DNA of 64,000 bases from Escherichia coli. GTDB taxonomy: Bacteria; Pseudomonadota; Gammaproteobacteria; Enterobacterales; Enterobacteriaceae. Of the stretch, positions 12,301 through 19,059 are shown piece after piece (position 1 is the stretch's first letter; each line of letters starts with the position of its first letter). The notes under the pieces were generated by a model. That model made no database searches. It worked only from the letters and a program-made list of their open reading frames with translations, and was not told the DNA's origin. The position numbers were made by a program, and so were the translations under genes. The DNA lies in assembly GCF_011045215.1 (NCBI RefSeq), contig NZ_CP049202.1; one strand, given 5' to 3'.

Positions 12301-14661
12301 CTTCGCACTGTCGCTGACGGAATGCCCGGGCGTTTCCACCCAGCCGTTCTCCAGCTTCAGTGCCGTGAACGGTGAATCAGCCACAGGCAGGGTGGCCGGT
12401 TCAGCCCGCCCCGGCACAACAACCGTCATCGCATCTTCACTGACGGATGCCACCTGCAGGCGGTCACCGCCGGAGACGCGGAGTCCGGGGATTTGTCCCG
12501 TCACCCTCAGACGCTCGCCGTCTGCCACCGGCATTTTTTCCGGCCGGAACAGCGACCAGCTGCTGTCCAGAGAAGAAATACGCACCACCTGCGTTTCACC
12601 CTGCGCATCCCGCAGGGTCAGGCTGTGACTCTGCGCCGTCACCCGGTCTATCACATAGCGGTCATGACTGCGTGTCTCCGGGTTCCACTGCTCCATCACC
12701 ATCCCCGGGCGGTACATATCCCGCAGATAACGGCTCCGGCTGTCCAGCCAGACCGGTGACAGGGCGGTCATGGTTACTTCCGGGTGTCCGAGCACGCCCT
12801 GTGTTTTCAGCTCACTGCGAATGGCCTGTGTCAGTATGGCCTGTTCCCGTACCCCGCTGACCTGTGCCACGCTCTCTTCTCCGGCTTTCACGCTGGCCGC
12901 AAAATCTCCTGCCAGCCGGGCATAGCGGACATTACGGTCCGGTTCACTGATGATGGTGGCCGGTCGCTGTTCTCCCCCCAGCCAGCGATATGTGTTCACC
13001 CCGGCATCCTTCATGGCCATCAGCGCACTGCCTGTACCGGTTCGCTGCCCGCTGTCGGTTATCAGGACCTGTACGTTATGACGTGCGGCACCGTCCAGCA
13101 GGGTTAACGTCTCTTTCAGGGAGAGTTTTTCGCCCTGGTCAACGATAACAGTACTGCCCGGCGTGAAGGCCATGCCTTCCAGCAACTGACGACGTCCGGT
13201 TATCAGCTCACCGGACAGCCGTTCATCCTGCTTCAGGTTCATCTGCGAGCGACGGTCAGCAGCGATAATCTGCACTTCCCGCCCCTGCTCCCGGGCCATC
13301 ATGACCAGTTCAGCCACCCGCTCACGCTGCCCGGCTGCACCGCCCTGCCCGGACACAATGGCCAGCGACGGACGGTCCTGTGCCAGAACACTGACCGCAT
13401 CGCTGTAACCAGCCGTCCGGGGGACACTTTTCTCCGGATGTACGGTCACCCGGTTCTGTTTCATGATGTCACGACTGAGTGCCCGGACGGACAGCTCATC
13501 GAGCACATGAATTCCTGATGTGAACAGCCCCTTCTCACGGTCGAGGGGGATGAGTTGCTCACGACTGATGGCCTCATCGATACCGGCGCGTGCCCGTTCA
13601 ATCACACCATTTTCCGGCGGCAGTATACCGACCGTTCTGGCCAGCACGTCCGTATACGTGAACTGCACTTTTCGTTCACTTAATCCGGCAATGGCCTGTG
13701 TCACCGCCTGCTGCACATCCGGCCCCTCCAGTGAAACAGCCCCGGGCGCCTGCGTGCGGGTCTCTGCCCGTTGCTCCGCCGCGTCACGATACGCCCGGAT
13801 ATCGAACCCGGTTTCCTTCAGTGTCTGCATCCACTCGGTCATTTTGATTTCAGGATCGACGTGCTGTTTGGATTTTCGCGTATCCAGTGCTGCCACATCC
13901 CGGGATTTCAGCGAGGCGTCTTCCCCGACGGCCTCCCTGATAGCCTGCGAACGACTGGAAAAGGCCTCCACCGGTACGCCCGGCATCTCCCACATCCCGT
14001 GCTTACCGACCACTTCGGTTTCATAGCCCAGCGCCTCAACCTGCTCTTTCAGCTTTTCCCGGTAGAGTCTGCCAAAGGCAATCTGATTAGCGTACACATT
14101 CTCAATGAACCCTGTTTTTCCCACTTTGTCACTGCTCAGTGTCTTCCACTCGCCGTTATGCTGTGTAACATTGGCCACCACCGCATGCGTGTGTAACTGT
14201 GGTTCCTGATCGCGACTGGTGTCGTGATTAAAAAGCGCCATCACCAGATTACCGGTCAGCACCGTTTCTGACTGTCCGTCCGTCATAACCCGTGTGGAGG
14301 CCAGCGCCTCCACCTGACGGACAGCAAAATCCACGGCCTGGTTATGTGCATCAATAAGACGTTTATCACCGCCTAACATGGCCATCACGGAGACACTTTT
14401 GGGGGCGGAGAAGGTCAGGTCGTAGCCGGGACGATGCTTATTACTGCCATCCTGCATGCGGCTTAAATCCGCTCCGTCCGGCAGCCTGCCCTCCAGAAGA
14501 CGGGTAAAAACATCCTTATCGACACTGCCCTGCAGCCCCAGCTGTTCAGCCCCCCTGCCGGCCCAGCGTTCTCCCATGCTGCCCAGCACATAGTAATTAT
14601 CCTTGTCGGTATAATAGTTACCGGCACTTCCGGCCGATCTGACCTGCGCGATACTCATCAT
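9391..14661 (-). CDS. traI: TraI relaxase/helicase
   Basis: 1756-aa ORF, same length as F TraI; N-terminal relaxase region and P-loop helicase region. Confidence 0.95.
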   Translation of the reverse strand: MMSIAQVRSAGSAGNYYTDKDNYYVLGSMGERWAGRGAEQLGLQGSVDKDVFTRLLEGRLPDGADLSRMQDGSNKHRPGYDLTFSAPKSVSVMAMLGGDKRLIDAHNQAVDFAVRQVEALASTRVMTDGQSETVLTGNLVMALFNHDTSRDQEPQLHTHAVVANVTQHNGEWKTLSSDKVGKTGFIENVYANQIAFGRLYREKLKEQVEALGYETEVVGKHGMWEMPGVPVEAFSSRSQAIREAVGEDASLKSRDVAALDTRKSKQHVDPEIKMTEWMQTLKETGFDIRAYRDAAEQRAETRTQAPGAVSLEGPDVQQAVTQAIAGLSERKVQFTYTDVLARTVGILPPENGVIERARAGIDEAISREQLIPLDREKGLFTSGIHVLDELSVRALSRDIMKQNRVTVHPEKSVPRTAGYSDAVSVLAQDRPSLAIVSGQGGAAGQRERVAELVMMAREQGREVQIIAADRRSQMNLKQDERLSGELITGRRQLLEGMAFTPGSTVIVDQGEKLSLKETLTLLDGAARHNVQVLITDSGQRTGTGSALMAMKDAGVNTYRWLGGEQRPATIISEPDRNVRYARLAGDFAASVKAGEESVAQVSGVREQAILTQAIRSELKTQGVLGHPEVTMTALSPVWLDSRSRYLRDMYRPGMVMEQWNPETRSHDRYVIDRVTAQSHSLTLRDAQGETQVVRISSLDSSWSLFRPEKMPVADGERLRVTGQIPGLRVSGGDRLQVASVSEDAMTVVVPGRAEPATLPVADSPFTALKLENGWVETPGHSVSDSAKVFASVTQMAMDNATLNGLARSGRDVRLYSSLDETRTAEKLARHPSFTVVSEQIKARAGETSLETAISHQKSALHTPAQQAIHLALPVVESKNLAFSHVDLLTEAKSFAAEGTSFADLGREIDAQIKRGDLLHVDVAKGYGTDLLVSRASYEAEKSIIRHILEGKEAVTPLMERVPGELMEKLTSGQRAATRMILETSDRFTVVQGYAGVGKTTQFRAVMSAVNMLPESERPRVVGLGPTHRAVGEMRSAGVDAQTLASFLHDTQLQQRSGETPDFSNTLFLLDESSMVGNTDMARAYALIAAGGGRAVASGDTDQLQAIAPGQPFRLQQTRSAADVAIMKEIVRQTPELREAVYSLINRDVERALSGLESVKPSQVPRQEGAWVPEHSVTEFSHSQEAKLAEAQQKAMLKGEAFPDIPMTLYEAIVRDYTGRTPEAREQTLIVTHLNEDRRVLNSMIHDAREKAGELGKEQVMVPVLNTANIRDGELRRLSTWETHRDALVLVDNVYHRIAGISKGDGLITLQDAEGNTRLISPREAVAEGVTLYTPDTIRVGTGDRMRFTKSDRERGYVANSVWTVTAVSGDSVTLSDGLQTRVIRPGQEQAEQHIDLAYAITAHGAQGASETFAIALEGTEGGRKQMAGFESAYVALSRMKQHVQVYTDDRQGWTDAINNAVQKGTAHDVLEPKADREVMNAERLFSTARELRDVAAGRAVLRQAGLAGGDSPARFIAPGRKYPQPYVALPAFDRNGKSAGIWLNPLTTDDGNGLRGFSGEGRVKGSGDAQFVALQGSRNGESLLADNMQDGVRIARDNPDSGVVVRIAGEGRPWNPGAITGGRVWGDIPDNSVQPGAGNGEPVTAEVLAQRQAEEAIRRETERRADEIVRKMAENKPDLPDGKTEQAVREIAGQERDRAAITEREAALPESVLREPQRVREAVREVARENLLQERLQQMERDMVRDLQKEKTLGGD

Positions 14662-16814
14662 CAGAAATCATCTCCCGGCTCAACATCCTCCCCGCGCTCC
14701 CGGTGCACATTAATGTTCACCTCTTCACGACGCTGCATCTGCTGCTGGATGTCCGGATGATTTTCCTGTTGCCATGCCTCATAAGCGGCCATATCCACTA
14801 CTTCACCGGATTCACTGATCCCGGGTGGCAGTTGCTGTTCCATCTCTTCTTCCGGTTTCATTTTCAGCTCCTGCTCGATCCCCCCTGCCGGAACATTCAC
14901 ACCTGCATCTGACTTCTTATCATTGATGACAGAAGACACTGGCTGTTGTGGCTGTTCAGCCTGAACCACGTCTTCTCCGGAAACAACCTCCGGGACATCC
15001 GGTTCGAAGAGGCTGGCCATCTGGCGACCTTCTGCTTCTCTTGCGGCAAGCACGGCACTCAGGCGATTCTCCATTTCCGGATTGATTTCACGCGGAATAA
15101 ACTCCGGAGCAACCTTCGGACGTTCCTGATATTTCAGTGAGAGTTTTACTGCCGGATACGGTCCGGGCAGGGTGACATAACAGGTCAGATCCGGCAGAGA
15201 CTGAATGTCGGAATAACTGACCAGCGTCTGGCGCTCCATATCCTTACCGGTCGATACCCCGTCACGCACGGGATCAGCACCGTAGGAATACTGCTCGCTG
15301 GCTTTCAGGTGCTCTTTCTCACCAATTTCACCGGCAGCGAACTCTGCAATCTTATGGCTGGGAGAACGGAAAAAGGCACGGGTGTTCATGACGTCAAACA
15401 GCGTGGCAGCCGCTTTCTCACCGTAGATATCTTCCAGCTGGGCATAGGACTGGATACCAAATACATAGCAGCCACCAAACTTACGGGCTTCCGGCAGGAT
15501 CTCCACCAGGTCCGGCAGTTTGTGTAACGTGGGTAACTCATCACAGAAAAACCACACACGACGGCTACGGTTTTCTCCCATTGCCAGCAGACCACGAATG
15601 GCAATGGACAGCCACATGGAGATCACCGGCTTCAGGGAGGCATGGGTGTCGGCGTTCGACGAGATAAACAGCCAGCCGTTTTTCTGATCTTCCCGGACAC
15701 CACGCATCCAGTCACGGATGGTGAAGGGCTCACCGTTATGCTCAATCCCCTGCAGGTAACGGATGGCTTTCACGTAGTTGGTCAGCACAGCACGGATGGA
15801 AATCGCCGTTTTCTCGATTTTCTCTTCCACCAGGTTGGCCGCCGGTGAATTACGCAGGAAGGTACGCAGTTTTTCGATTTTGATGGAAAGCAGTGTGTCC
15901 ACCAGTTTGCTGTAACTGCGGTTGGGGTCATTACGCATCAGGTACGCCGCTTCCGCAAAAATGGTACGTCCTGAACCCTGCCAGAACGGGTCCTCTTTTG
16001 TGCCCATCGGGATCAGCGTGTTCGCGGTATTATCAAAATCCGGCTGTGTCAGGCACTCCTTCCACAAATCCCAGGCGGCACAGCGGGCATCCAGCGGATT
16101 CAGGATTTTATCGATGGAGGGATCATAGTAACTTTTAACAAATTCCCCTGAACGGTCATAAATCACCACCATATCTCCACGCTGACGGGCGTAGTTGGCC
16201 AGACGACGGATAACTTCCGACTTACCGGCCCCGACCGTGCCGTGCAGACAGAAGTTCTGGATTTCGGAATCCCGGATAATCGGCAGGTCGCCAATCCGTA
16301 TATCGGAGTCCTTGCCGTCTTTTTTCAGCATCCGGGCAACGTCTTTCGGGTTCTCCGTCAGCTGACGACCACCTGTGACTTCATTTTCGCTCTGTTGTTT
16401 ACCCTGACGCCCCAGAATCCAGGAGACAACAAAGAAGGTAATCAGGCAAATAACCAGTGCCACAACTGTGGCCAGAACGAATGCGGACCATAGCTGCTCT
16501 CCGCACCAGATCATATATTTATCATGCAGTACCTGAGCAGCATTCATCCGGAAGGTTTTGCCGTAATACTGGATCTCATATACCGGCTGGGACCTGATTA
16601 AATCCCGCATGCCTTCCAGCGTGGTACACCACCAGTAAATACAGCCGTTCACAAACGTCTGCCAGCTTATTTTTACCCATAAAACCAGACCAACGAGTAT
16701 CCAGAAAAAAATAAACAGGCAGTAAAGCATGATATTGGCGATCTGGCTGAACATGCGGATACGCATGGACGCAATCTGACCGCCCTGGGTCATATCCTTT
16801 GCGTTAAAACTCAT
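14661..16814 (-). CDS. traD: TraD type IV coupling protein
   Basis: 717 aa, N-terminal TM helices, Walker A (GTVGAGKS), Q/E-rich C-terminal tail. Confidence 0.95.
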
Positions 16815-16864
16815 GATGAAACTCCGGGAAAATCTGGAACAGAGCAGAAAAGGATGATGTGGGA

Positions 16865-17602
16865 TTAATTCACAGAAACAGACCAGGTGTACCCTGTATG
16901 CCGGTGGTGATAACCGCCTGCAGTCCTGCCGGAAGAGACCTTCTTTGTAACAATGTCAGTCAGGCGCAATACTTCAGACCAGTCACTCCCATGCGGAAAC
17001 TGGATCTGAATAAAAAGGCGTACCCGTTCACGATGATCCAGAACTGTGTCCGGTTCATAAAGCAGACCACTATCAGGAGAAACACGGGACGTTTTATTGA
17101 TGAGTTCGTATTTATCGGCATGAGACAGTGATGAAAGCGCCCAGGTAATATTTTCGCCCTGATGACCATCAATACGACTGTTCCCCGGCGTCCAGGCAAT
17201 TTCCTGCGCATTCGCCACGATGATCTGTCTCGATACTTCTGCCAGCTTTTTTGAAGTACAGAATACCGGTGCCAGCACACACAGGGACAAAAAATTGCAG
17301 CTGACCGCTTCCGGTTTAACCGGACTGCTCCCGGATTTTTCAGGAAAAGATATTTTTGTCAGTATTTCAGTTAATTCCTTATGCCTGAGAGAGTTAATAA
17401 AGTGCATGACAAGCATCATGAGAAACAATATAACAATAAGCCCTCCGATAACCACTAAAAGGTCAGTATCAATATTATTGTTGTACAGATAGTCTTTAGT
17501 GGTCGCTGTATTATCCTGTATCACCGGGGGGTATTCAGTTACAGGCTTCTCAGTAAATTGATTATTCTCACCAACATATTCAGCGATATTGTCTGATGTC
17601 AT
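16865..17602 (-). CDS. hypothetical single-TM protein encoded in the traT-traD gap
   Basis: 245 aa from ATG at 17602 with GGAG RBS; one hydrophobic helix ([21 protein letters not shown]). Confidence 0.6.
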
Positions 17603-17804
17603 AATGACTTTCTCCGGAAGCTTCCGGCTTCGCCGGCAACACTTCACGGTCGCACAAAGAATTTGCACAACCGCTCAGTGTTTTCATATTTATTTCGGAA
17701 ACGCCGGGGAGAAATAAAATTTATTTTATTTCTTTCCGGGGTTGGACAACGAGCAAAGCGAGGCGTCAGTCAGGAGGCCGGTCAGACCAGCCTCCTGAAG
17801 ATAA

Positions 17805-18536
17805 TCAGAGAATATTTGCGATTGATTTGGCCAGCTGGTCTTCGAGAACAGGCTTCGCCTCTTCAAATTTCAGGTTAACCTTGTTCGCACTGGAGACCAC
17901 ACGGGTCTGGTATTTATGCTGGTTACCTGTTTCAGTACTGGTCTGAATTTTCGCACCTGATGTGCCCTGACGCAGGGCGGCAACATTATCCGTTGTCACC
18001 GTTGCCTTAGTACGCTCTGCAATCTGCACATCCGTGATCATGGTATAGTTCACATCTTCCACCATCGCATCTGCAGCCATACCCACCAGACCGGCAGCAA
18101 GGCCCACACCGAGTGTGGCACCGGCAGAACTGGAATTATATCCGGTGATACCGGCACCTAACGCTGCACCAACTGCTGCGCCTTCATAACCACGGTTCAG
18201 CCATCCCTGAGACTCCCGCAGATCCATCTTATCGGCCTTCAGCACATTCGCCTGAATCCAGTAGTAGGCTTTATCCGGAGAAGTCACCACCTGATATCCT
18301 TTTGCTTTCACAGCATCAGCAATTTTGCCCTGCAGCCCACTCATGTCTTTATCAGACGTGTTTTTGATCTGCAGAAATACCGTGCGTTCGCTGGCGGGTT
18401 CAAGCCAGATGGTCTCACTCATCTGAGTCTTCACCTCAAGGTTACGCTTCTTGATTGCTGTGCTCATCGCACCACACCCTGAAAGGGCCAGAGTGGAACT
18501 GACCAGTGCAACCATCATTAGTTTTTTTGTTTTCAT
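17805..18536 (-). CDS. traT: TraT surface-exclusion lipoprotein
   Basis: 243 aa; lipobox LALSGC; strong match to F TraT. Confidence 0.9.
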
Positions 18537-18549
18537 CCAAAATATCCTT

Positions 18550-19059
18550 TTAACTAACAGATTCTTTTTTGAACAGACCTATTACTGAGACTATTGCAGA
18601 GAGATTATAACGATTTATATCTATAGTATAAATAAAGGAAAAAATTACAAACAGAGTTATCGATAAAAAACCAAATAAGAACGTATGGGCGAAGGAAACT
18701 ATTGAAAAAACAATCACAAACAACAAGATATAAGTTTTGTTCTTATCATACATAAAAGATATAACTTTCGACTCATCTCTGAATTTTTTAGGGATAGCAA
18801 GATACAACATCATTCCATTAGTAATGGCAACAAAAAGGATAAACCCCATTACGCCACTAAAACATATATCAAATCCGGCATCTCGGATATCAACTTTATC
18901 TGCCAGCAAACGGAGAAATGTCGGCCATAATAAAATCCATAAAAATACATACCCCCCTGGCTTTATGACTTGTAATAATGGCGGAATATTAACACCCTCT
19001 ACAGAGAGTACATCCTTTAGTTTCTGTGTCTCCGTTTTTATATCATAGTGAGTAATCAT
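18550..19059 (-). CDS. traS: TraS-like entry-exclusion inner-membrane protein
   Basis: AT-rich, highly hydrophobic 169-aa ORF between traG and traT. Confidence 0.55.

Follow-up and report, generated by a model that had tools for sequence, protein, structure and literature searches.

In the F plasmid (NC_002483) the genes traT and traD are separated by a gap of 252 bp without an annotated CDS, as the original prediction had assumed, whereas the corresponding gap measures 990 bp in the stretch of Escherichia coli DNA analysed here (64,000 nucleotides, in the following called the window). The window represents an F-like plasmid whose entire tra operon is encoded on the minus strand, and the enlarged gap houses an open reading frame of 245 codons. 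This raises the question of which gene is found at this position, whether it is a genuine one and what its product could contribute to conjugation. It had been proposed to be an unusual, extra gene for a membrane protein, with a possible role in exclusion, recipient recognition or phage defence.

Identity and distribution of the gene between traT and traD

The genes and signals of the interval are the following.

14661-16814, minus strand: traD, the downstream flank of orfE/yhfA, with traI directly after it
16815-16864, minus strand: spacer of 50 nt between the orfE/yhfA stop codon and the traD start, containing the traD ribosome binding site
16865-17602, minus strand: orfE/yhfA CDS, 245 aa plus stop, from the ORF list, its translation and the same CDS annotated in R100
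17612-17615, minus strand: Shine-Dalgarno sequence GGAG, read from the sequence, 9 nt 5' of the orfE/yhfA ATG
17622-17804, minus strand: structured non-coding segment 3' of traT, 183 nt, 99.5% identical to F (alignment, BLAST, RNA fold)
17805-18536, minus strand: traT, the upstream flank of orfE/yhfA, with traS and traG further upstream

The reading frame starts with an ATG at 17602 and ends with a TAA at 16865-16867 (minus strand), and both the frame and the good ribosome binding site that had been claimed for it are indeed present. A longer form of 267 aa, starting from a GTG at 17668, was rejected because it would have to extend through the structured segment, which does not code for protein in F, and because it is the ATG that owns the ribosome binding site.

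The classic IncFII plasmid R100 contains a CDS of 245 aa (WP_000199905.1, at 75462-76199) between traT and traD. The exact R100 sequence is named "OrfE protein" in UniProt/UniRef (Q99389), and the gene was named YhfA by Ochi et al. 2009, who also stated that a similar ORF is absent from F (PMC2762410). The window protein shares position, length and architecture with the R100 protein, the difference being that the window allele is rare: only three PLSDB records contain a sequence at least 99% identical to it. In comparison to the common R100-like alleles the window ORF shows about 93.6% nucleotide and about 91% protein identity, and the protein matches the main clusters of the family with 91% identity at 100% coverage. 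It also has the complete family architecture in alignments and hydropathy plots, namely N-terminal tail, TM helix, invariant segment and conserved C-terminal domain. We are therefore highly confident that the window ORF is an R100-type orfE/yhfA and a genuine accessory gene of R100-type tra operons.

The gene is widespread. In PLSDB the ORF is found in 1,885 records, of which 1,797 carry it nearly full-length and 1,866 (99%) are predicted to be conjugative (MOBF/MPF_F). The 990-bp interval as such matches 4,033 PLSDB plasmids, and a query with traT and traD as anchors finds 4,273 records, which gives a prevalence of about 44% (1,885/4,273) among plasmids with this traT-traD pair. This agrees with an evenly spaced sample of the anchor matches, in which spans of about 1,651 bp (F-type gap) and of about 2,390/2,378 bp (with yhfA) occur at roughly 28 to 20. 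The survey of the interval across F-like plasmids, which had been suggested as a check, thus reveals two main classes. Among 60 sampled plasmid matches most are full-length and annotated as CDS, and 1,209 of 5,426 complete E. coli genomes (22%) possess the gene, almost always on plasmids. All homologues come from Enterobacteriaceae, and every homologue whose context was read lies in the traT-traD gap and is oriented like its neighbours (the window, R100 and seven further loci, including those of the most divergent allele, P0074, and of P0027). The annotation is always "hypothetical protein", and the exact window protein is listed in NCBI nr as 'MULTISPECIES: hypothetical protein [Enterobacteriaceae]'.

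The idea of an extra gene could therefore not be maintained, as the gene is common and has long been annotated in a well-studied F-like plasmid. orfE/yhfA is an ordinary, long-annotated, uncharacterised gene and not a new one. As a discovery it carries little weight, having been part of the R100 sequence and of the output of annotation pipelines for decades. Some value lies in the gap in knowledge, because it encodes a selected, predicted membrane-anchored protein inside the best-studied conjugation operon. No functional study of yhfA/orfE was found in the searched open-access literature, and the only other mention is a passing GWES co-selection link in a 2025 preprint on ST131. F is the standard model in the laboratory and does not have the gene, which may explain why nobody has studied it. 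Should yhfA be found to affect transfer, exclusion or phage sensitivity, this would be relevant to the spread of IncFII resistance plasmids.

Coding status and anatomy of YhfA

Nine copies of the ORF, all of them intact, were collected, one from the window and eight from other loci. The dN/dS values, determined by the Nei-Gojobori method and pooled over six close alleles, separate the annotated frame (0.27) from the other two sense frames (1.05 and 1.06) and from two of the three antisense frames (1.16 and 1.34). The third antisense frame also shows a low value (0.34), which we would expect from the codon geometry as we read it, since the third positions of its codons fall on those of the annotated frame. 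Within the protein, dN/dS is 0.47 for the N-terminal tail, 0.77 for the TM helix, 0.59 for the linker and 0.21 for residues 101-245. For the C-terminal part it stays near 0.21-0.23 even in comparison to the most divergent allele, at a dS of about 1.2-1.4. orfE/yhfA is a genuine coding gene under purifying selection.

These values have to be weighed against the reading that yhfA is a decaying or functionless frame which is called by default in annotation pipelines. Many database entries are indeed truncated or frameshifted: naturally IS-truncated and N-terminally disrupted forms are frequent, with truncations by IS26 and ISEc8, a form of 180 aa comprises 921 cluster members, and variants of 213 aa occur as well. 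The very low confidence of the AlphaFold models described below points in the same direction. However, low dN/dS values of 0.21-0.27 are restricted to the annotated frame, the C-terminal domain is conserved at a dS of about 1.4-1.8, the full-length clusters have thousands of members, and most of the frameshift variants are singletons from draft assemblies that enter a neutral frame. We regard a functionless ORF as very improbable and this reading as largely refuted.

The 213-aa variants are frameshift hybrids which switch, at different points, into an alternative frame inside yhfA that is open for 106 codons (16960-17280, minus strand) and evolves neutrally (dN/dS about 1.05). As a second product of the gene they were rejected, since they are frameshifts into a neutrally evolving frame; they are assembly errors or pseudogenes.

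The protein can be divided as follows.

17303-17602, minus strand: variable N-terminal module, residues 1-100, with acidic tail, TM helix and linker; AT-rich, GC 0.39-0.41
17396-17458, minus strand: TM helix, residues 49-69, Kyte-Doolittle maximum 3.2 (19-residue window)
17258-17299, minus strand: invariant hydrophobic Cys-rich segment, residues 102-115, beginning with CN[FL], mean hydropathy 2.06
16868-17257, minus strand: conserved C-terminal domain, residues 116-245 (about 130 aa), predicted to be alpha/beta, without recognisable fold

Residues 1-47 are acidic (2 K/R versus 9 D/E) and rich in Asn, Thr and Pro, and this tail is probably disordered. It is followed by the strong hydrophobic helix that had been claimed as the single TM helix of the protein, which is also the only region with a pLDDT of 70-80 in the AlphaFold model. 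A charged linker containing Pro and Ser (residues 70-101) leads to the shorter hydrophobic segment, which the original prediction had not mentioned. This segment is the most conserved stretch of the protein; it includes three invariant Cys and is nearly invariant in all alleles including P0074; at residue 104 the window allele has F instead of L. Either a second passage through the membrane or a buried core is conceivable for this segment. With one TM helix the positive-inside rule favours the N-terminus outside and the C-terminus inside, while with two spans both orientations score about equally, so that the topology is ambiguous by this rule. A reading of the Cys-rich segment as a lipoprotein or internal signal peptide was rejected as it lacks a lipobox: Cys 102, 108 and 115 are preceded by VS, SL and VF, which do not match [LVI][ASTVI][GAS]C, and lie 100 residues from the N-terminus.

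The C-terminal domain could not be placed, as had been stated before. YhfA has no match in Pfam or NCBIfam, no defence family of PADLOC-DB v2 matches at E<=1, PHROGs gave no match, and sequence and profile searches of the PDB yielded no significant match (best E = 0.33). An exhaustive phmmer search of 1.84 billion representative proteins found only the own family, fragments and frameshift variants, none of them outside the interval; one marginal match (E = 1e-5) was to an unrelated repetitive protein of 1,272 aa. A profile search of all ORFs of the window for a paralogue found only yhfA itself. Similarity to TraS, TraT or TraG is absent, and an enzymatic or nucleotide-binding motif was not detected. 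By these searches YhfA appears to be a taxonomically restricted orphan. AlphaFold2 reached a pLDDT of 39 with the full-length alignment, and a pLDDT of 45 and a pTM of 0.44 with the C-terminal domain alone, both alignments being shallow with only one truly divergent member. A fold search with the predicted C-terminal domain gave no significant match outside the own family. From the two approaches that had been proposed, sequence search led to the known R100 family, but structure prediction produced only poor models.

In size and layout YhfA resembles the bitopic T4SS subunits of the VirB8/TraE type, which likewise combine a short N-terminal tail and a single TM helix with a C-terminal domain, there of about 140 aa, but YhfA has neither a match to the Pfam VirB8/TraE profile nor a recognisable NTF2-like fold.

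Polymorphism of the traT-traD interval and of the N-terminal module

The segment between traT and yhfA contains a perfect GC hairpin of 13 bp (17770-17798, minus strand) and an AU-rich inverted repeat (17700-17743, minus strand), which forms a hairpin too, and both lack a U-tract. In this traT-proximal flank the window is F-like and not R100-like. F-type and R100-type intervals part at about 17621/17622, within CCGG-containing palindromes. The whole segment might function in RNA stability or processing, or as a site of recombination.

A third state of the interval is found in the E. coli plasmid M19 (NZ_CP010222.1; L011:1416-1532), where an unannotated small ORF for a hydrophobic protein of 38 aa, MSIFKILDQMFPGNPFTWLFAVLIINVLVLCLLRKRK, is located with an AAGGA ribosome binding site exactly at the yhfA site. 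In pSLT-like Salmonella plasmids (L012, about 1197-1313) a TGA interrupts a related copy, and sequences related to the small ORF are limited to 21 PLSDB records, most of them from Salmonella. The interval of F looks like a deletion of this M19-type ORF. Judged from such comparisons, the traT-traD site is occupied by either of two unrelated genes for membrane proteins or is empty. The traT and traD anchors can be 99% identical in plasmids with and without yhfA, which implies that recombination shuffles the interval independently of its neighbours, and whether the gene is present or absent does not depend on the TraT and TraD N-terminal alleles.

Such a polymorphic interval, holding yhfA, the small ORF of M19 (interrupted in the pSLT-like plasmids) or nothing as in F, could suggest that the site is a cargo slot and YhfA a passenger without relation to conjugation, such as a novel single-gene, membrane-acting phage defence or abortive-infection factor, or an anti-defence factor. 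The GC content of the interval below that of the tra core and the status of YhfA as an orphan without known fold fit to this reading. It is set back by the fact that, unlike typical mobile defence genes, yhfA was never found outside this interval or outside F-like plasmids, and also by the lack of PADLOC or PHROGs matches and of a detectable enzymatic or nucleotide-binding motif. A passenger of this kind is in our opinion quite unlikely.

Variation is also found within the gene. At least three N-terminal allele types, R100/window, P0027 and P0074 (compared as window 17303-17602, minus strand, L005:6001-6300 and L006:6001-6300), share their architecture and are nearly unalignable. The N-terminal dS exceeds 1.6 between alleles whose C-terminal domains differ by a dS of only 0.16, which indicates a recombination breakpoint near codon 100. 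The GC content of the 3' half of yhfA is 0.47, in comparison to about 0.53 in the neighbouring tra genes.

In one common allele of 259 aa (WP_000199914.1; L010:1501-2280, NZ_CP019009.1; also the cluster members P0169 and P0171) the loss of the stop codon extends the frame across the spacer and gives it a 4-nt overlap with the traD start codon. This overlap would couple the translation of yhfA and traD.

Possible roles of YhfA

orfE/yhfA is dispensable, because F and about 56% of the related plasmids lack the gene and because it is frequently disrupted in nature. The explanation that we favour, though tentatively and short of even confidence, is that of a real, non-essential accessory gene of the F-like tra operon whose product would assist the mating apparatus as an envelope factor. 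Its transcription would come, by read-through, from the promoters of the tra operon and of traT. This is the most likely mode, since traT and traD point in the same direction as yhfA and a convincing separate promoter was not found: directly upstream of yhfA, no promoter better than chance was found on the coding strand of the traT-traD interval. The distance of just 50 nt between the yhfA stop and the traD start, and the allele that overlaps this start, fit to such a coupled expression, while membership in the operon is supported by the confinement of all homologues read to the traT-traD gap and by the predicted conjugative nature of 99% of the carriers. The predicted product would be a small protein anchored in the inner membrane and built of four parts, the acidic N-terminal tail, one TM helix, a flexible linker and the C-terminal domain of about 130 aa beginning with the Cys-rich segment. 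It may act at or near the coupling protein TraD in the inner membrane, or at the T4SS, and would modulate conjugation rather than being required for it. Confinement to the operon, orientation, closeness to traD and the membrane anchor point, with low confidence, to such an auxiliary inner-membrane mating factor. The uncoupling of gene presence from the TraT and TraD N-terminal alleles argues against a tight co-adaptation with TraD.

The accessory trb/orf genes of F are not required for transfer. Like yhfA, these genes (trbA, trbE, trbF, trbH, trbJ, traP) are located within the operon, small, variably present and often membrane-anchored. There is no sequence relationship to yhfA, and the likeness, which we use as an analogy, is one of genomic behaviour only. 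The variable conservation of trb/orf genes among F-like plasmids has been described (PMC5102898).

Alternatively YhfA might work together with traS and traT, produced in plasmid-carrying cells under the control of the traT promoter and having its effect on the recipient side, be it exclusion, protection from lethal zygosis or protection of the envelope. yhfA is the next gene after traS-traT. The closest good match to a promoter, which is also the only strong sigma-70-like one nearby on this strand, lies upstream of traT (18632-18604), and between traT and traD no canonical terminator better than chance was found on the coding strand. The traT promoter could thereby place yhfA in a constitutively expressed exclusion unit and not in the donor-specific machinery. 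Moreover, the N-terminal module is AT-rich and hypervariable like exclusion genes (GC of traS about 0.28-0.36). TraS is similarly adjacent, AT-rich, hypervariable and located in the inner membrane, but with its 150-170 aa it is hydrophobic throughout, whereas YhfA combines one clear TM helix with a conserved, soluble-looking domain, and YhfA has no similarity to TraS, TraT or TraG. Furthermore, one N-terminal type of YhfA occurs with at least three types of TraS (169-aa, 161-aa and 165-aa) among the few loci examined, so that YhfA does not behave as a partner in exclusion specificity. F shows full exclusion with traS and traT and without yhfA. We therefore consider a role on the recipient side unlikely. 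The roles put forward originally, exclusion, recipient recognition or phage defence, are still unsupported, as PADLOC, Pfam, NCBIfam and PHROGs provide no match and the alleles do not track the TraS type in the few loci examined.

A further-reaching proposal is doubtful but deserves to be named: YhfA may represent a new fold and serve R100-type plasmids as a functional module specific to their lineage, which could modulate the coupling protein TraD or be a new kind of envelope-protection or exclusion factor. If this were true, the traT-traD site would be a swap point for alternative membrane proteins, occupied by the 245-aa YhfA, a hydrophobic 38-aa peptide or nothing, which tune transfer or host fitness in the clinically dominant IncFII resistance plasmids.

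Three further observations concern the neighbourhood of the interval. The GC content of traS (18550-19059, minus strand) is 0.28-0.36 versus about 0.53 in the flanking tra genes, consistent with its known hypervariability. In M19, about 290 bp of additional sequence directly after traT (L011:1001-1290) replace the usual hairpin and include an ORF of 51 codons, MNRAEFRLSQALILLGYDEDKYPLYSSHNLL... The traD/traI junction is another indel polymorphism of the distal tra operon: in the window traI begins at the end of traD (14661), as in R100, while in F (NC_002483; L004:7958-8674) about 715 bp lie between the two genes, with a vapBC toxin-antitoxin pair on the opposite strand.
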